Source: Nitrosopumilaceae archaeon (lineage in GTDB: Archaea; Thermoproteota; Nitrososphaeria; Nitrososphaerales; Nitrosopumilaceae). Taken from it: 64,000 nt of DNA. Position 1 is the first letter of the stretch, and every line of letters begins with the position of its first letter. This document shows, piece after piece, positions 38,758 to 44,796 of the stretch. The notes beneath the pieces were generated by a model. It had not been told where the DNA came from. It made no database searches and was given only the letters and a program-made list of their open reading frames with translations. Location: contig OZ242274.1 of assembly GCA_965207375.1 (NCBI GenBank), positions 2,048,001 through 2,112,000 on the forward strand, given 5' to 3'. Position numbers and translations under genes: made by a program.

Positions 38758-39774
38758 TCAGCACAGTTTTGCAATTATCTCATTGGTAAATTCTACAGTG
38801 GTTTTATCACCGCCAATGTCTTTTGTTCTTGTACCACACTTTACTACATCATATACCGTTGTTTCCAACCTTTTTGCAATCTCAAAACATTTAGAGTCAT
38901 TATTTTTTGCTCCAAGCCAATCCAACATAAGTTTAGTTGAAAGAATAAATGAACAAGGATTAGCTATATTCTTTCCGGCAATGTCAAAGGCTGCCCCATG
39001 AACCGGTTCAAAAAGTGCAAAGCTGTCTCCGATGTTGGCAGCAGGAGCCATACCTAATCCTCCAACTACCTGAGAAGACTCGTCAGATAAAATGTCGCCA
39101 AATAAATTAGTTGTAACTATAACATCGAATTTTTCTGGTTGGCGGATTAAATTCATAGCACATGCATCTACATACATTTGCTCAAATTCAACATCAGGAT
39201 AATTTTCTGCAATATCAGCACATGATTTTGCAAACAAGCCATCAGATATTCTCATGACATTGGATTTGTGAACGCATGTGACCTTTTTGTGATTATTTCT
39301 TTGTACGGCAATTTCAAAGGCATACTTGGCAATGCGTTTTGATGCACGTTCAGAGATGATTCGCAATGCAACAGCAGAATCACCAAGAGAAAACTCTTTG
39401 CCGATGTAAAGATCTTCGGTATTTTCACGTACAATTACCATGTCAATATCATCACGTAATGCAGGCATCGATGGGTAAGATTTTGCAGGGCGTATGTTGG
39501 CGTAAAGATCAAGTGTGCGGCGCAATGCAACAATAACATCTGCTGCACTTTCTCCAACAGGGGCCTTTAAACACGCATCAGAGTTCCTGATTGCAGCAAC
39601 GGTCTCATCAGGTAACGCCTTTCCGATATTTTGCAGGGCCATATCACCTGCAGACAGTTTTGCAATATCAAACTTCAAATCAAGCTTGTCATGTATTGTT
39701 TCAAGAACACTAGATACTGCACATGACAATTCAGGTCCTATGCCGTCACCTGTAATAAGAGACACTCGGTACAT
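38758..39774 (-). CDS. leuB: 3-isopropylmalate/isocitrate-family dehydrogenase
   Basis: GDGIGPE, RENTED, HKSN, NLFGDILSD, EPVHG; operon context. Confidence 0.85.
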   Translation of the reverse strand: MYRVSLITGDGIGPELSCAVSSVLETIHDKLDLKFDIAKLSAGDMALQNIGKALPDETVAAIRNSDACLKAPVGESAADVIVALRRTLDLYANIRPAKSYPSMPALRDDIDMVIVRENTEDLYIGKEFSLGDSAVALRIISERASKRIAKYAFEIAVQRNNHKKVTCVHKSNVMRISDGLFAKSCADIAENYPDVEFEQMYVDACAMNLIRQPEKFDVIVTTNLFGDILSDESSQVVGGLGMAPAANIGDSFALFEPVHGAAFDIAGKNIANPCSFILSTKLMLDWLGAKNNDSKCFEIAKRLETTVYDVVKCGTRTKDIGGDKTTVEFTNEIIAKLC

Positions 39775-39833
39775 GTGACACAATAAAGATGGGCAATTTT
39801 AAATCAATTGGAGTAAATATCTAGTGTGGTAAC

Positions 39834-41324
39834 CTAACGTTTTTTGAGCATGATACGGTTAATTCCATCAATTACTGCCTCAACACTGGTAGTAACTATA
39901 TCCTCACCTACTGCCTTGGCAGATACCTTATTTCGGGCAGCATCTTCTACTTTTATGGTAACTTCACATAATGCACTAGAACCTCCTGAAATTGATGCTA
40001 GGCCGTAATCTTTTATTTTAACCTCAGATATCTGGCCTGTGATTTTTTGGATTGCATTGAGTGCAGCATCAACTGGCCCCACACCATGATCAGTTGCGGT
40101 AAAATCCTTGCCATCTATGTTGAGCTTGACAAATGCATACGGCATAGTTCCAATTCCTGTAGATACTGAAAATCCAACTAGCCGCACGAGTTTGATTCCC
40201 TTGTCTCCCAAAATTTCATTGGTAATTGAAAGAAGTTCCACATCAGTAACCTGTTTTCCCTTATCACCCAAGGTTTTTACTTTATCAAGAATCTGATTTG
40301 ACTGCTCCTTGGTAGGAATTATACCATACTCTTGTAACATTGCATTCATACCGTGTAGACCTGCATGCTTGCCTACCTGTAACCATCGTTTTCTGCCTAC
40401 TAGTTCAGGACTGATTGGCTCATATGTCAGCGGATTGCTAAGAACCCCGTGTGTGTGAATGCCTGATTCATGACCAAACGCATTGTCACCTACTATGGCC
40501 TTGTTTGGCTGTACAGATATTCCAACAAGTTTTGAAACAAAGCGTGATGTTTCGTATAATAATTTGGTATTGATACTAGTTTCCCATTTTTGTTCAAATT
40601 GCAGACATTGCAGTCCCATAACAAACTCCTCCAATGACGCATTTCCTGCCCTCTCCCCAATTCCATTAATTGTTACATGCGCACACGTAGCACCTGCTTG
40701 AATTCCAGAAACTGCATTGGCAACTGCCAATCCAAAGTCGTTATGGCAATGTACACTGACTGGAAGTTTGGTGGCCTCGACTGTATCTTTTGTGATTTTA
40801 GCAATATAGTCAGGCGTAGAATAGCCAACCGTATCTGGAATATCAACCCTGTCAGCACCTGCCTTTGCCACCTCGCCAAATACCTTTTTCAAAAACCCCC
40901 TGTCGGTTCTTGTTGCATCCTCTGCAGAAAACTCGACCTGCAAACCATGAGATTTTCCATACTCTACTGCCTGGACTGCCTTTGAGAGGCACTCATCACG
41001 GCTCATGTGCAGTTTGTGCTCTAGATGGATATCAGAGGTTGCAATAAAGGTGTGAATATAATCTAGTCCTGCATCAATTGCAGCATCAATGTCTTTTTTG
41101 TTGGCCCTTGCAAGACCGCAAATTTCTGTATCAAGTCCCTGAGCAGTAATCATTTTGACTGCATGTAATTCGCCCTCAGATATGACTGGAAAGCCTGCCT
41201 CGATGGCATCGACTCCTAACTCATCTAATTTTTTTGCAATGTCTAGTTTTTTCTCAGGAGACAAAGATACGCCCGGAGTTTGTTCTCCATCCCGCAGTGT
41301 TGTATCAAAGATGCGAACGTTCAT
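39834..41324 (-). CDS. leuA: 2-isopropylmalate (or citramalate) synthase
   Basis: DTTLRDGEQ, HCHND, GIGERAGN, HESGIH, GPVDA regulatory domain. Confidence 0.85.
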   Translation of the reverse strand: MNVRIFDTTLRDGEQTPGVSLSPEKKLDIAKKLDELGVDAIEAGFPVISEGELHAVKMITAQGLDTEICGLARANKKDIDAAIDAGLDYIHTFIATSDIHLEHKLHMSRDECLSKAVQAVEYGKSHGLQVEFSAEDATRTDRGFLKKVFGEVAKAGADRVDIPDTVGYSTPDYIAKITKDTVEATKLPVSVHCHNDFGLAVANAVSGIQAGATCAHVTINGIGERAGNASLEEFVMGLQCLQFEQKWETSINTKLLYETSRFVSKLVGISVQPNKAIVGDNAFGHESGIHTHGVLSNPLTYEPISPELVGRKRWLQVGKHAGLHGMNAMLQEYGIIPTKEQSNQILDKVKTLGDKGKQVTDVELLSITNEILGDKGIKLVRLVGFSVSTGIGTMPYAFVKLNIDGKDFTATDHGVGPVDAALNAIQKITGQISEVKIKDYGLASISGGSSALCEVTIKVEDAARNKVSAKAVGEDIVTTSVEAVIDGINRIMLKKR

Positions 41325-41803
41325 GCCCCGCTCCTCTGTAAAGCAGCAACTCCAGTCCTAGAGGTATCTAAAATTCCAAACTGCTTTGCTAGTTCCTCAA
41401 ATGCCTGGATTTGTTCTGGAGTAGAAGTTAATTCAACCATTATAGAGTCTTTTCTTATATCATGAACCTTGGCACCGTAGGCGTTTGCAAGTTTGTTAAT
41501 TTCCATACTGTCTTGTGGGGAATTTACTTTGACTTTAAAGAGTACTAGTTCTCGATACACGGTTTTATGCTCATCTAAATGACGTACCTCTACGGTATCA
41601 ATCATCTTGTCAAGTTGTTTTACAATTTGTTGTATTTGTTTTTGATCACCCAAGGTGGTAATAGTCATTCTGGAAAACTCTGGATTCTGAGTCACACCCA
41701 CAGAGATGCTGTCAATGTTAAAATTTCTAGAACGAAACAGGTGAGTTACCTGAAATAAGATGCCTGGTTTGTTTTCAACTAGTAATGAAAGTATGGCCCA
41801 CAT
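41321..41803 (-). CDS. ilvN: Acetolactate synthase small subunit
   Basis: ACT domain LVENKPG..FNIDSI..SRMTI; RELVL; RTG. Confidence 0.95.
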   Translation of the reverse strand: MWAILSLLVENKPGILFQVTHLFRSRNFNIDSISVGVTQNPEFSRMTITTLGDQKQIQQIVKQLDKMIDTVEVRHLDEHKTVYRELVLFKVKVNSPQDSMEINKLANAYGAKVHDIRKDSIMVELTSTPEQIQAFEELAKQFGILDTSRTGVAALQRSGA

Positions 41804-41812
41804 ATCAAATCA

Positions 41813-43513
41813 CTAAGATGGCAATATCATTTCCTTTAATGAAGTTCCTGGTGCCACAAATGGCAATACGTCCTCTTCGGGGTCAATTGGAATATCAATT
41901 ACGGTTGCAACATCGCTTTTTATCGCTGTCTTAATTGCATTATCAAGCTCTTCCATTGATTGTGCGCGTATTCCTTGAGCACCATATGATTCTGCTAGTT
42001 TTACATAATCTGGACAATGTTTTTGATCCACACCGATCATTCGTCTGTCGTAAAAGGTACGTTGCCATTGTGCAACCATGCCCAATGTGTAATTGTTTAT
42101 GAGAAATACAATAACTGGAATGTCTTCAGTAATACAGGTTGCAAGAGAGTTTTCAGTCATGTTAAAGCTTCCATCGCCTGCAATGTCCACTACTGGAACG
42201 TCTGGTTTTGCCACTTTGGCGCCTATGGCTGCAGGAAATCCCCATCCCATTGTGCCCAAACCCGTGGAGCTAAAAAAAGTGCCAGGCGATATCACGTCAT
42301 AAAATAGCGATGCCCACATTTGATGCTGTCCTACTTCAGTAGTTACAATTGATTCTTTTGGTAGCAGTTGCCTTAGTTTTCTTAAAATTTTAGCTGCTCC
42401 AAGCTCGCCAGGATGTAATTTCAAGTTCTCACGCCAATACTCTTTTACCTCACGTACATGTCTTAACCAAATATTGTCATCACTTCTTTTTACTGCCTGT
42501 TGGGTCAACATCTTTACCATAACTCGCAATGAGGCGCGTACATCACCTATCACTGCTACTTGGGTTGTTTGATTTTTGCCAATTTCGGCAGGATCTACAT
42601 CCATGTGAATGATTTTCAAATTCCTTTCAAACTCTTCAAATGTTCCAACAGATCTATCTGAGAATCTAGTTCCAATTGCAAGTACGCAATCTGCTTCACT
42701 CATCAACTTGTTTGCCTCAGCATGTCCATGCATTCCAATTGGGCCCAGAGATAGAGGATGCGTTTCGGGAAATGCACCCTTGCCCTTAAAAGTTGTCACT
42801 ACAGGAATCATAAGCAGTTCTGCAACTGCTTGTAATTCTGCAAATGCAGAAGAGATAATAGTTCCACCACCGGCTAAAATTATTGGTTTTTCAGAACCAA
42901 GCAACATTTTGATCGCACGTTCGATTTTAACCATATCAGGATCAGTCCACGGATGATATCCGCGAATCTTAAACTCTTCAGGAAAATTCATTAGAGCCTC
43001 GTTTTGTTGAACGTCTTTTGGAATGTCAAGTAATACGGGTCCGGGTCTACCAGTTTCTGCAATGTAAAATCCTTTTTTAACAATTTCAGGAATGTCTGCG
43101 GCATCTCTTGGTTGAAATGCATATTTTACTACAGGATTTGCCATTCCAATTATGTCACTTTCCTGAAAGGCATCTTTGCCTATCATCTTTACAGGTACTT
43201 GACCAGTAACTGCGATCATTGGAGCAGAATCGGCCTGTGCAGTAGCTATTCCAGTAAGAATATTTGTAGCACCGGGACCAGAGGTTGCAAAACACACTCC
43301 TGGTTTTCTACTTACTCTGCCAAATCCGTCTGCCATGTGAGCTGCTGACTGCTCATGTCGAACCAAGATATGTCGAATGTTTGATTTGTATAGTTCATCA
43401 TACATTGGGAGATTAGCTCCACCAGGTAATCCAAATACCTCCTTGACGCCTTCCTTTTCCATAGATTTCATCAAAGCAGCAGCACCTGACATTGTTTCCA
43501 TATTATTGATCAA
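41813..43513 (-). CDS. ilvB: Acetolactate synthase large subunit
   Basis: FGLPGG, RHEQ, TSGPG, GQHQMW, GDGSF..NN ThDP motif. Confidence 0.96.
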   Translation of the reverse strand: MINNMETMSGAAALMKSMEKEGVKEVFGLPGGANLPMYDELYKSNIRHILVRHEQSAAHMADGFGRVSRKPGVCFATSGPGATNILTGIATAQADSAPMIAVTGQVPVKMIGKDAFQESDIIGMANPVVKYAFQPRDAADIPEIVKKGFYIAETGRPGPVLLDIPKDVQQNEALMNFPEEFKIRGYHPWTDPDMVKIERAIKMLLGSEKPIILAGGGTIISSAFAELQAVAELLMIPVVTTFKGKGAFPETHPLSLGPIGMHGHAEANKLMSEADCVLAIGTRFSDRSVGTFEEFERNLKIIHMDVDPAEIGKNQTTQVAVIGDVRASLRVMVKMLTQQAVKRSDDNIWLRHVREVKEYWRENLKLHPGELGAAKILRKLRQLLPKESIVTTEVGQHQMWASLFYDVISPGTFFSSTGLGTMGWGFPAAIGAKVAKPDVPVVDIAGDGSFNMTENSLATCITEDIPVIVFLINNYTLGMVAQWQRTFYDRRMIGVDQKHCPDYVKLAESYGAQGIRAQSMEELDNAIKTAIKSDVATVIDIPIDPEEDVLPFVAPGTSLKEMILPS

Positions 43514-43540
43514 CTTTTATCCCCATAATTTTAATCTAGT

Positions 43541-43560
43541 AAACCCAACAATGTTGGATT
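43541..43560 (-). promoter_or_regulatory. Hairpin directly after the leader-peptide stop
   Basis: AATCCAAC-ATT-GTTGGGTT on the transcript strand (one G-U pair). Confidence 0.55.
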
Positions 43561-43614
43561 TTAGTACAGAACCTCCAGTAGAAGAATTTGAAAAGAAGCT
43601 ACTGGACCGAACAT
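43561..43614 (-). CDS. Candidate ilv/leu leader peptide MFGPVASFQILLLEVLY
   Basis: 17-codon ORF between the TATA box and ilvB; 6 of the last 8 codons are Ile/Leu/Val. Confidence 0.6.
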   Translation of the reverse strand: MFGPVASFQILLLEVLY

Positions 43615-43635
43615 GTTATACCAAACACAGGATTG

Positions 43636-43643
43636 TTTATAAG
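43636..43643 (-). promoter_or_regulatory. TATA box of the ilv-leu operon
   Basis: CTTATAAA 22-29 nt upstream of the leader ATG. Confidence 0.55.
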
Positions 43644-43795
43644 ATTAATGGATTAGATAACAATCTGCTAACCTCAAATCTTGACTATGATTTTTGAGAG
43701 AACACCAAAAATCATACTTTAAAAAAACACAGTTATCACCAGTTTATAGATGCCAATTAAAACTCAAGTTTGAGACTCTGAAATTTCTATTTTGA

Positions 43796-44107
43796 TTAAA
43801 AATCTTTTGGAATGTGATTGTTTGCTTTTAACCATTCAACCTGTGGCAAGGTAAATCTCCACACGATATCCCCACGATCATCACTGTTAAAGTCCCAAGG
43901 AGCAATTACAACAATGTCATTGTCACGAATCCAAACACGCCTTTTTAATTTGCCTCGGATTCTACCACGCCTAGTAATTCCATCCATACACTTTATCATA
44001 ACATTTTCGCCGCCAAGCATTTTTAAAACTCGTCCAAACATTTCACCTTCTTCAGGCAGACGAATTTCTTTTAGTGCACTTTCATTTTTTACCTGACGCT
44101 TTCCCAT
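43796..44107 (-). CDS. eif1a: Translation initiation factor aIF-1A
   Basis: MLGG..C.DG..R..RIRGKLKRRVWI..PWD. Confidence 0.96.
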   Translation of the reverse strand: MGKRQVKNESALKEIRLPEEGEMFGRVLKMLGGENVMIKCMDGITRRGRIRGKLKRRVWIRDNDIVVIAPWDFNSDDRGDIVWRFTLPQVEWLKANNHIPKDF

Positions 44108-44202
44108 AAGGATGCGTCCATTTACATTACATATAACTGTGAAGATTAATCAAGACTTTTTGCAAACAAAGGAATTTTATGCAAAGCAATTGTAGATAAA
44201 AA

Positions 44203-44796
44203 ATGAAATTTCAGTGTGTGCCAGATTGCTCCCAGTGCTGTATCGAAAGAGAATATTTCCCATCAAAAGAATATGGAAAGATTGGAGTCCTGATTTTGCC
44301 TGAGGAAAAAGACAAAATAGAACAAATGGCCAAACACAAAGGCATCACAGTATCAATTATTCCCAGAATAGGAATTTCAAATTATAAAGATGACAAACCA
44401 AATGAAACTATAGCATATCAAATGATGGGAAGAGAAAAAAATGGAAACACATGTCCGTTTTTAGATACAGAATCAGATGAGAGAACAGAGCACGGAGGAC
44501 ACTTGTGCAAAATTTATCAGAACAGACCATTGGCATGTGTAGCATATCCATTGGAGGAAATCGAACCTACAACATTAGATCAAAAATGCAAGTTTTGCAA
44601 AGAGCGAGGAAATGCAGATACAAATCTTGATGCAGAGACTGAATCATTGTTATACATCAAGGCCAAAATGAAAACAGATGCAGATACCATATGGAGGTAT
44701 GCCACCGGAGTAGGAGAAGAATTTGATAAAGCATATATCAAAAAAGGATGGATAAAAGAGATACAATATCAAAAAAAGAAGGCAGCAAAAAATTAA
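44203..44796 (+). CDS. YkgJ-family Cys-cluster (Fe-S/Zn) protein
   Basis: CxxCC, CPFL, CKIYQNRPLACxxYP. Confidence 0.85.
   Translation: MKFQCVPDCSQCCIEREYFPSKEYGKIGVLILPEEKDKIEQMAKHKGITVSIIPRIGISNYKDDKPNETIAYQMMGREKNGNTCPFLDTESDERTEHGGHLCKIYQNRPLACVAYPLEEIEPTTLDQKCKFCKERGNADTNLDAETESLLYIKAKMKTDADTIWRYATGVGEEFDKAYIKKGWIKEIQYQKKKAAKN

Follow-up and report, generated by a model that had tools for sequence, protein, structure and literature searches.

Leader-peptide attenuation is a textbook bacterial mechanism that needs coupled transcription and translation. Whether an archaeon might use it too is the question raised by the ilvB-ilvN-leuA-leuB operon of a Nitrosopumilaceae archaeon: a 17-codon ORF with a cluster of Ile, Leu and Val codons near its end lies in front of ilvB, and a sequence-only reading of the locus had proposed an amino-acid-sensing leader peptide. 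Comparison with relatives upholds the ORF, its I/L/V block and the recurrence of its stems, so that this reading is, overall, partly supported. We estimate a probability of roughly 0.5 that the ORF (uORF1) is a translated leader peptide that would report the supply of charged Leu, Val and Ile tRNA to ilvB-ilvN-leuA-leuB. The output of such a leader may be premature termination or control of initiation.

The operon and its leader

The window (the whole stretch of DNA analysed, 64,000 nucleotides) carries the operon on its minus strand:

41813..43501, minus strand: ilvB, acetolactate synthase large subunit (TIGR00118, 727.6 bits; start taken as ATG 43501)
41803-41321, minus strand: ilvN, downstream of ilvB
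41324-39834, minus strand: leuA, downstream of ilvN
39783-38758, minus strand: leuB-like dehydrogenase, at the 3' end of the ilvN-leuA-leuB stretch (38758..41803)

Profile matches thus bear out the gene order proposed from the sequence, with the leuB-like dehydrogenase narrowly missing the TIGR02088 cut-off (404.7 against 409.8 bits). The gene upstream of the leader and the operon is aIF-1A. Archaeal amoA was found in the genome, which makes the organism an ammonia-oxidizing archaeon. Between aIF-1A and ilvB, the leader contains the following elements:

43636..43643, minus strand: TATA-like box CTTATAAA, putative leader promoter, with its start 29 nt ahead of the uORF1 ATG
43561..43614, minus strand: uORF1, candidate leader peptide MFGPVASFQILLLEVLY, 17 codons plus stop TAA 43563-43561, with ORFs at the homologous position in relatives
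43567..43587, minus strand: candidate regulatory-codon block ATT CTT CTA CTG GAG GTT CTG (I L L L E V L), with L/V/I conservation and synonymous variation
43574..43606, minus strand: P1 hairpin, an 8-bp perfect stem with 5' arm TCCAGTAG at 43606-43599 (codons 3-6) and 3' arm CTACTGGA at 43581-43574
43541..43561, minus strand: P2 hairpin AAATCCAAC-ATT-GTTGGGTTT, 9 pairs, one of them G-U, dG -7.3, with the final base of the uORF1 stop as its first base

The TATA box, the ORF, both hairpins and a GGGGAT before ilvB were all found on the minus strand where the sequence-only reading had placed them.

In this genome, TATA-like 6-mers before long ORFs are most frequent at -29..-27 relative to the ATG, and the box in the window sits at the modal position. 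Among relatives, 31 of 40 leaders have a TATA-like hexamer starting at -42..-24, and alignment A1 shows a conserved AATCTTTATTA block. The distance of about 28-38 nt between TATA box and uORF1 ATG points to a message that is leaderless or nearly so, and judging by this spacing uORF1 is probably leaderless. In compact relatives the uORF1 stop lies merely 28-32 nt from the ilvB ATG, a gap taken up by P2, a T-rich spacer and GGTGA, which leaves no room for a separate promoter.

Recurrence of the leader ORF among relatives

We searched upstream of ilvB for any ATG-initiated ORF of 8-60 codons whose stop lies 20-150 nt before ilvB and whose last 10 codons include at least 7 I/L/V. Within the same order, such an ORF is present at 31 of 55 loci (11 of 18 families); elsewhere in the class it is present at 9 of 20 loci from other orders (3 of 7 families). 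As the relatives are not independent, these locus counts are higher than the number of separate events. Among 20 loci from 16 families in the phylum's other classes, it was found in none. When 54 loci were used for controls, the sense strand yielded 30 matches, as compared with one on the antisense strand and a mean of 0.37 (at most 3) in dinucleotide shuffles. The occurrence of an ORF with an I/L/V block upstream of ilvB across relatives far exceeds chance. The comparison that the sequence-only reading had proposed as its own check, for a short ORF with a retained I/L/V block before ilvB, thus came out in its favor at the level of the family and of the order, and in additional orders of the same class.

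Several observations count against an attenuator. Under a looser rule, which asks for 5 or more I/L/V among the last 10 codons of an ORF starting with ATG, no ORF was found at 15 of 55 order-level loci, nor at any locus examined in families f9, f15 and f26. Within the window's own genus, the tails contain 6 (the window copy), 5, 4 and 2 I/L/V, the weakest of the family.

In 56 of 121 family genomes, a covariance model built on a single leader class returned essentially one hit each. The position of the hit relative to ilvB was read in 15 of these 56 genomes, those with ilvB coordinates, and it lay directly upstream of ilvB in 15/15, 4 of which were outside the training set. A leader of the same type as the window's, MNPVTGFEVFLLLDVLY, occurs in another genus (L012), with P1 and P2 in the same places and different stem sequences. 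Over all relatives, uORF1-type ORFs encode 13 to 46 residues.

Conservation of the tail codons

Eleven leaders were aligned without gaps. Of the codon pairs that differ at codons 12-20, 47% are synonymous in frame, as opposed to 14% and 6% in the other frames. The N-terminal half of the same alignment shows about 13% in all frames, indicating an unconstrained N-terminus. GC-rich genomes recode the tail, writing IVLLIVV with GTG CTC CTC ATC GTC codons. The conserved feature of the tail is its codons at the amino-acid level.

The composition of the last 10 codons was compiled for 40 loci that had been selected on I/L/V count. Among their 400 residues are 168 L, 79 V and 36 I, next to 7 F, 4 M, 7 A and no W. 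The tail therefore differs from a generic hydrophobic segment, with the selection of loci on I/L/V count to be borne in mind. In the same selected loci, I/L/V make up 71% of the last 10 codons and 27% of the rest of the peptides, and L/V/I conservation is position-specific over positions -9..-1. An acidic residue stands at -4 in 13 of the 40 loci, within C-terminal motifs such as LLLVDL(V/M)L, and its codon sits inside the P1 stem (GTCGAC). The leader peptides of 10 relatives matched no NCBIfam family (one chance hit, E 0.14); the window's 17-residue peptide is too short for this search.

Hairpins and termination signals

P1 couples the middle of the ORF with Leu-Leu-Val codons; in the window, its 3' arm covers Leu codons 12-13 and parts of codons 11 and 14. 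RNAalifold gave no consensus on the 19-sequence MAFFT alignment A1 because the stems are out of register, and per-locus folding and an ungapped alignment (A2) were used in its place. P1 cells are paired in 89% of cases in relatives, as against 9-59% in slid controls. The P1 duplex has a z of -1.92 in the window and a mean of -1.66 over 46 loci (17/46 below -2); the P2 region has -0.66 in the window and a mean of -1.51 (19/46 below -2). A hairpin with dG of -5 or lower occupies the P2 place at 38 of 40 loci, beginning -15 to +9 from the stop, a position that is partly given by construction, as the search window ran from -15 to +13. On the covarying stems that the sequence-only reading had asked for, P1 and P2 recur, with stem sequences that are unrelated in other families, and the ungapped alignment contains one compensatory pair. 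P1 pair 18-48 is G-C in 6 sequences and A-U in 5, both positions being third codon positions.

The architecture also poses a difficulty for attenuation. In classical attenuators such codons occupy the 5' arm, but here the chief Leu-Leu-Val codons fall within the 3' arm of P1. A ribosome stalled there would not reach P2. In addition, inspection revealed no mutually exclusive antiterminator pairing, and neither did folding in which a ribosome footprint was masked.

As the sequence-only reading had remarked, no long U-tract follows the hairpin: the window has no T4 run between the uORF1 stop and ilvB, and P2 is followed by TTT ACTAGA, short of an intrinsic terminator. Many family relatives have T4-5 in this interval. 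Runs of T4 or longer between stop and ilvB occur at 22 of 48 loci, as compared with 12.7 +/- 3.0 in shuffles, which counts for an attenuator. Against it, T5 or longer is unenriched (6/48, 4.2 expected), and a U-rich tail follows P2 at only 11 of 40 loci. L096, with a GC hairpin and T6, is the single clear case. Genome-wide, T5 or longer runs follow 36% of genes versus 31% for A-runs, and the T-runs after this genome's ordinary genes show no clear enrichment from which a local terminator signature could be drawn.

The start of ilvB

Three further elements lie between P2 and ilvB:

43523..43534, minus strand: TTAAAATTATGG block, near-invariant in 17 of 19 aligned family relatives (A1)
43503..43526, minus strand: mini-ORF uORF2, MGIKVDQ, stop TAA 43505-43503, ending 1 nt before the ilvB ATG 43501
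43508..43512, minus strand: Shine-Dalgarno-like TGATC, 6 nt before ATG 43501, matching the 16S 3' end GGATCACCTCCT

The sequence-only reading had started ilvB at TTG 43513, preceded by GGGGAT. An ATG start at 43501 (or 43492) is more likely, since L007 and L012 carry an in-frame TAA directly before the equivalent ATG. The GGGGAT is present at 43524-43519 but becomes unconvincing as a Shine-Dalgarno element before TTG once the start is an ATG, and the GGGGAT/TTG assignment is, on this comparison, probably wrong. At the place of TGATC, relatives have GGTGA or GAGGT. SD-like 5-mers precede 19% of operon-internal genes versus 7% of first genes.

Among 19 relatives with the uORF2 ATG, the mini-ORF stops 0-5 nt before the ilvB ATG in 12, is in frame with ilvB in 6 and is out of frame in 1. 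In several relatives the TTAAAATTATGG block forms the 3' arm of a third hairpin (P3), and a resembling sequence, CTAAAATTATGGCA, covers the ilvC start in this genome.

Proposed mechanism and alternatives

If uORF1 is a sensor, transcription would start about 28 nt past the TATA box, at or beside the uORF1 ATG, giving a leaderless or near-leaderless message. A ribosome would read uORF1, whose final 8-9 codons, nearly all Leu, Val or Ile, extend to the stop, where P2 is located. With amino acids plentiful, the ribosome would complete uORF1 and depart, allowing P1 and P2 to fold, and folded P2, together with the U-rich sequence found behind it in many relatives, would reduce read-through into ilvB. 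With amino acids scarce, the ribosome would stall on the last codons and mask the 5' arm of P2, so that the hairpin would be prevented and the operon would be on.

The same sensor could instead have a translational output. A ribosome stalled at the end of uORF1 would open P2 (P3 in family relatives) and free the ilvB initiation site, which would be either the SD or, in TTAAAATTATGG, the conserved ATG whose frame runs on into ilvB or closes beside the ilvB ATG, by the logic of ermC or of mycobacterial leaderless poly-Cys ORFs, for which 10.1101/834739 provides a precedent. The lack of a U-tract in the window fits this arrangement. So do the SD-like elements, which follow P2 at a distance of a few nt in most lineages; in L083, L085 and L047 they overlap with the 3' arm of P2. 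The conserved ATG is paired in P3 of several relatives, for example GTCCAT/ATGGAC in L014 and L024 and CTCC/GGAG in L009, the mini-ORF ends next to the ilvB ATG or runs into ilvB in the relatives counted above, and the minimum-energy fold pairs tail codons with the SD in L042, L051 and L041. However, when a 29-nt footprint was masked at each tail codon in 40 loci, the modelled accessibility of the ilvB ribosome-binding site did not rise consistently; it went up at some loci and was unchanged or lower at many. With a stall at the last codon, the conserved ATG gained 0.1 or more in accessibility at 5 of 15 loci and became less accessible at 3; in the window the value changed from 0.50 to 0.55. 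Moreover, compact relatives have neither P3 nor the TTAAAATTATGG motif. We consider a translational output unlikely.

In another alternative, the functional unit is a structured nucleic acid and the ORF is secondary: P1 and P2 would be an RNA that binds a protein or ligand, or an inverted-repeat DNA operator. P1 and P2 do recur most widely of all features, the near-invariant TTAAAATTATGG block is conserved beyond what codon sensing would need, and the similar CTAAAATTATGGCA lies over the ilvC start of the same genome. Nevertheless, even relatives with unrelated nucleotide sequences retain the frame-specific synonymy, an open frame whose ATG lies at promoter distance and a stop immediately ahead of P2, and the I/L/V run goes past the P1 arm up to the stop. 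G-U pairs in the sense strand of P1 favor RNA over a DNA palindrome, in which they would be mismatches. An Rfam 15 scan of 43000-44300 placed no family at threshold (five matches, E of at least 2, all far under gathering scores). We give this explanation little credence.

The element may also be a decaying or chance remnant in this genome, without regulatory effect even if it functions in relatives. The window copy is statistically weak, which counts against an attenuator here: it has the weakest statistics of the set, with 6 I/L/V among its last 10 codons, a P2 z of -0.66, a whole-leader fold z of -1.00 and no T4 run after P2, the T-run having been lost, and the other tails of its genus are weaker still. 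Short ORFs with at least 6 I/L/V are common in the genome, and at least 7 are found in 18 of 3,518 short ORFs upstream of long ORFs; none of 10 such ORFs checked in this genome precedes a branched-chain amino acid gene. Taken by itself, without relatives, the element in the window could have arisen by chance. Yet the window retains intact the promoter, the ATG spacing, P1 with its 8 perfect pairs on the Leu codons, P2 at the stop, the SD-like site and the conserved block, and the same type of leader is found in L012 of another genus, leaving a remnant a slim prospect.

It is very improbable, finally, that uORF1 encodes a small hydrophobic peptide whose own function has nothing to do with sensing: the conserved C-terminal motif with its acidic residue at -4 would suit it, but peptide length varies as given above with a free N-terminus, the hydrophobic run of 8-10 residues is below membrane-spanning length, enrichment is limited to L, V and I, the covariance-model hits lie directly upstream of ilvB in every genome checked, the acidic codon belongs to the P1 stem, and 8 of 8 peptides are missing from a 15-billion-protein collection.

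Relation to known systems

The enterobacterial leaders ivbL, ilvL and leuL encode peptides rich in the end products of their operons, read by a ribosome coupled to transcription. The classical attenuator has four segments, an antiterminator and a G+C-rich terminator with a U-run, and its regulatory codons lie in segment 1. Like these systems, the archaeal leader would place an end-product-rich peptide before a biosynthetic operon. It has the end-product codon cluster (ILLLEVL in the window, with frame-specific conservation) and a short ORF, whose translation we infer, in the leader of an amino-acid operon. It differs in the placement of the codons, which occupy the 3' arm of P1 and continue past it, and in that an antiterminator was not found.

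A likeness may also be sought in actinobacterial ilvB leaders, where, according to PMC1262725, I/V/L codons overlap the terminator hairpin, with candidates in Mycobacterium and Streptomyces. In such leaders, as in the archaeal one, a short ORF stands immediately ahead of ilvB, it contains Ile, Val and Leu codons in runs, and these codons overlap or abut a hairpin (here P2, at the stop). For C. glutamicum IlvL (MTIIRLVVVTARRLP), PMC11857589 places the transcription start 1 nt from the leader start codon; the actinobacterial transcript starts at or beside the start codon, as is predicted for the archaeal leader from TATA spacing. The archaeal leader, in contrast, belongs to another domain with a TATA/TFB promoter and an archaeal RNA polymerase, and has no sequence relation to the actinobacterial ones; Leu dominates, the I/L/V run reaches the stop, and the poly-U tail is short or missing (absent in the window). 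Its leader region is 55-130 nt long, as compared with 292 nt in C. glutamicum. Counting against the proposed mechanism, changing the candidate regulatory codons of the S. coelicolor ilvB leader had no effect, as stated in PMC1262725.

In mycobacterial leaderless poly-Cys short ORFs, as outlined in 10.1101/834739, the first cistron senses through cognate codons and a stalled ribosome blocks a structure. The likeness lies in a leaderless (here predicted) first-cistron short ORF with cognate codons. In the mycobacterial case, the structure hides the ribosome-binding site and the output is translational, whereas the modelled output of the archaeal leader is inconsistent.

No described example of an archaeal amino-acid leader-peptide attenuator was found in the full-text literature searched, in agreement with the sequence-only reading, which was not aware of one described for Thaumarchaeota. 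One tool paper makes the general statement that uORFs regulate archaeal genes and gives no such case with it. We would lay even odds that this is the first amino-acid-sensing leader-peptide attenuator in Archaea, a putative leaderless mini-gene whose Leu/Val/Ile codons lead into the hairpin at its stop and which is sufficiently ancient to be common to several orders of the ammonia-oxidizer class. Given that the bacterial-type U-run terminator is often missing, the leader, if it functions as proposed, would imply an undescribed hairpin- or factor-dependent conditional stop or a translational gate in archaea. The class-wide candidate offers a small, testable system for communication between the archaeal ribosome and RNA polymerase, and bears on whether RNA hairpins affect archaeal termination as well as on the control of amino-acid synthesis in globally abundant autotrophic ammonia oxidizers. 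It also illustrates that unannotated leaderless mini-ORFs in archaea are detectable by comparison.

Additional observations

A single-genome scan for amino-acid-rich short ORFs proved noisy and was set aside: ten candidates rich in I/L/V, Phe or Trp lie ahead of unrelated genes (SMC, helicase, transposase, TFB and others). Upstream of trpE, hisG, two aconitase-family (leuC-like) pairs, ilvC, ilvD and ilvE of the same genome we saw no cognate leader ORFs, a result that counts against an attenuator.

A second promoter, with TTAAAATTAT as the TATA box of a leaderless ilvB, was likewise rejected, as its 6-mers are just about 2-fold enriched at the promoter position, its distance to the ATG is 32 to 36 nt, an SD-like site lies between, and compact relatives are without it; as an additional promoter, TTAAAATTAT could still serve. 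A sigma-70/terminator scan, uninformative for an archaeon, returned one terminator-like site, namely P2 on the opposite strand. CTG accounts for 49% of Leu codons in family tails as opposed to 14% in the genes of this genome; a rare-codon effect is ambiguous, because CTG TAA also belongs to P2.

Leader layout in the window

The window carries the following features between aIF-1A and ilvB:

43796, minus strand: 3' end of aIF-1A
43643-43636, minus strand: TATA-like element CTTATAAA
43614-43561, minus strand: uORF1, the candidate Ile/Leu/Val leader ORF of 17 codons, MFGPVASFQILLLEVLY, stop TAA
43606-43599 and 43581-43574, minus strand: hairpin P1, TCCAGTAG perfectly paired with CTACTGGA
43561-43541, minus strand: hairpin P2, AAATCCAAC/GTTGGGTTT, its first base being the last base of the uORF1 stop
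43534-43523, minus strand: TTAAAATTATGG block
43503-43526, minus strand: uORF2, a mini-ORF of 7 codons (MGIKVDQ) opened by the ATG of TTAAAATTATGG

This confirms the observation behind a sequence-only reading that had proposed a candidate Ile/Leu/Val leader-peptide attenuator here: the TATA box, the 17-codon ORF, the 8-bp stem and the second hairpin are all present where that reading had placed them on the minus strand. Counted from its first base, the TATA box lies 29 nt before the uORF1 ATG, and the P1 arm CTACTGGA falls on the Leu codons of uORF1. Downstream follow ilvB, ilvN, leuA and a leuB-like dehydrogenase (404.7 bits, slightly below the family cut-off of 409.8). The ilvB start is probably ATG 43501 or 43492 and not the TTG at 43513 previously taken as such, since two relatives have an in-frame TAA right before the equivalent ATG. 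The uORF2 TAA ends 1 nt upstream of ATG 43501, and the 16S 3' end of this genome is matched by TGATC at 43512-43508. Rfam returned no family in the leader region. The genome encodes archaeal AmoA, indicating that the organism is an ammonia-oxidizing archaeon. On the minus strand at 43720-43795, 3' of the aIF-1A stop, a small hairpin (CTCA AACT TGAG) is followed by TTTT, with a T7 run further on; this probably serves as the terminator of aIF-1A and lies 5' of the leader promoter.

From this genome alone, the leader is not beyond chance. uORF1 has 6 I/L/V among its last 10 codons; of 3,518 short ORFs located before long ones, 18 reach 7 or more, and the 10 I/L/V-rich candidates that we checked all sit before unrelated genes. 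Against shuffles, z was -1.92 for P1, -0.66 for the P2 region and -1.00 for the whole leader. The class itself is conserved; the window copy is a weak representative of it.

Recurrence and conservation among relatives

We compared the ilvB upstream region across three samples. The first comprised 55 genomes of the window's order, 35 of them in its own family and the other 20 spread over 17 further families; the second, 20 genomes from different orders within the class; the third, 20 genomes representing 16 families that belong to other classes of the phylum. All were searched for an ORF with any ATG, 8-60 codons, a stop 20-150 nt before ilvB and 7 or more I/L/V among its last 10 codons. As expected under the sequence-only reading, such an ORF recurs, at 31 of 55 same-order loci and 9 of 20 loci from other orders; none was found at the 20 loci from other classes. 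Among 54 order-level loci, the sense strand gave 30, the antisense strand 1 and dinucleotide shuffles a mean of 0.37 (maximum 3). Because related genomes are not independent, the weight lies with families too divergent at the nucleotide level to be aligned, in which the ORF recurs nonetheless. Tails include ...SILLLVDLML (L026), ...GLLLLVVLLD (L036), ...SLILVIILLL (L048) and, in a GC-rich genome, ...VALIVLLIVV (L077). The ORF was missed in loci with GC-rich upstream regions (L010, L013, L030), in small, very AT-rich genomes (L025, L033), in L004, L020, L035, L038-L040 and family f26, in L003 and L019, whose tails are degenerate, and in L049 and L096, where the frame is present and the ATG absent.

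Tail scores in the window's own genus are 6, 5, 4 and 2. A leader of a different type, ...APLFLLVGFTL, occurs in that genus, and the closest counterpart of the window's leader, MNPVTGFEVFLLLDVLY, of equal length and with the same ...LLL-acid-V-L-Y end, belongs to another genus (L012, genome G033). In another class of the phylum, L098 (genome G195) has an ORF ending ...VNSVNVVILK, with a strong hairpin between it and ilvB. Its 6 I/L/V are under the threshold of 7, yet this ORF may represent a leader beyond the class.

An ungapped alignment of eleven 20-codon leaders shows which part is constrained. In codons 12-20, 47% of differing codon pairs are synonymous in frame vs 14% and 6% in the other frames; in codons 2-11 the fraction is 11-13% in all three. 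Selection on the encoded amino acids is thus confined to the tail. The last ten residues of 40 loci comprise 168 L, 79 V and 36 I out of 400, with T at codon position 2 in 294 codons; F (7), M (4), A (7) and W (0) are scarce. These loci were picked on I/L/V count, which inflates the I/L/V share and leaves the contrast among other residues unaffected. The Leu codon CTG is over-used in tails (49% vs 14% in genes), where it also belongs to P2.

A covariance model of the 20-codon class gave 58 matches in 56 of 121 family genomes (3 of the 56 unpublished), the two surplus matches being a contig-end duplicate and one at E 0.005. In all 15 of the 56 with ilvB coordinates, the best match lies just upstream of ilvB. 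In G029, matches of identical score at C11:58357-58419 and C31:1-63, the latter at a contig start, are probably an assembly duplication.

Promoter, ilvB start region and hairpins

Upstream of the first ATG of long ORFs in the window's genome, TATA-like 6-mers (TTATAT, TTAAAT, TAAATA and others) are most frequent at -29..-27, indicating that leaderless messages are common. The uORF1 TATA box stands at exactly this distance, and 31 of 40 relatives have a TATA-like hexamer starting at -42..-24. An SD-like site precedes ilvB in most lineages; in the window's genome such sites precede 19% of operon-internal genes vs 7% of first genes. In compact relatives, P2, a T-rich spacer and GGTGA occupy the 28-32 nt between stop and ilvB.

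Of 19 aligned family relatives (L002-L024), 17 carry TTAAAATTATGG almost unchanged, a degree of conservation far beyond what a codon-sensing model needs. From its ATG, 12 of 19 relatives have a mini-ORF of 5-7 codons that stops 0-5 nt short of the ilvB ATG; in 6 others this ATG shares the ilvB frame, and in 1 it does not. Outside the window (C1:1154646), the ilvC start codon lies within CTAAAATTATGGCA, close to the conserved ilvB block, a likeness that may reflect a shared operator or coincidence; the 11-mer TAAAATTATGG occurs 14 times in the genome.

P1, which pairs the middle of the ORF with Leu-Leu-Val codons, appears in most minimum-energy folds, and its sequences are unrelated between families. 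Over 46 loci its duplex energy has a mean z of -1.66 against shuffles (17 below -2, 6 above 0). In the eleven-leader alignment 89% of cells are paired, vs 9-59% with the partner slid; pair 18-48 is G-C in 6 sequences and A-U in 5, several pairs go via G-U, and the covariation score of 0.278 (0.204 in shuffles) was reached by 0 of 500 shuffles. For P2, 38 of 40 loci have a hairpin with dG of -5 or lower at the stop or just 3' of it, and the region's mean z over 46 loci is -1.51 (19 below -2). A U-rich tail (at least 4 T within 8 nt) follows P2 at 11 of 40 loci and is not general. Runs of T4 or longer between stop and ilvB occur at 22 of 48 loci (12.7 expected), most of which belong to the family (15 of 25); for T5 or longer the count is 6 vs 4.2 expected. 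The window has no run of T4 or longer between the uORF1 stop and ilvB, in agreement with the earlier statement that no long U-tract follows the hairpin. In L096, from another order, a GC hairpin is followed by T6 and then GAGGTGAT ATG.

Candidate mechanism and novelty

The leader-peptide interpretation is well supported by comparison as a candidate function. Its most economical form would be the design proposed for actinobacterial ilvB leaders, in which, according to two reports, the terminator overlaps the regulatory codons and the transcript 5' end coincides with the start of the leader ORF (PMC1262725, PMC11857589). Stalled at the final I/L/V codons, a ribosome would cover the 5' arm of the following hairpin, and one finishing uORF1 would leave that hairpin free to form; P2 might then stop transcription, alone or with a factor, or gate initiation. 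For the termination version, the U-run is missing in the window; for translational output, two modelling tests gave inconsistent results. No antiterminator pairing emerged from inspection or from folding with a ribosome footprint masked. P1, whose 3' arm carries the best-conserved Leu-Leu-Val codons, may be a pause or anti-antiterminator element by analogy with hairpin H1 of C. glutamicum, for which such a role has been discussed (PMC11857589).

Our literature search on archaeal and thaumarchaeal leader peptides, attenuation and uORFs returned bacterial cases only; none of the leader peptides from 8 relatives occurs among 15 billion predicted proteins, and those of 10 relatives had no NCBIfam match. 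This kind of mechanism is already known; its occurrence in Archaea would be new, as would its leaderless construction and the atypical hairpin lacking a U-run.

The window's genome, at 4.3 Mb, is far above its family relatives (about 1-2 Mb). Its contigs C2, C3 and C4 (0.43, 0.78 and 0.93 Mb) hold very few long ORFs (104 of at least 120 aa on C2 vs 2,037 on the 2.16-Mb C1), and simple repeats such as poly-Cys-Val and His-Thr abound in their short ORFs.
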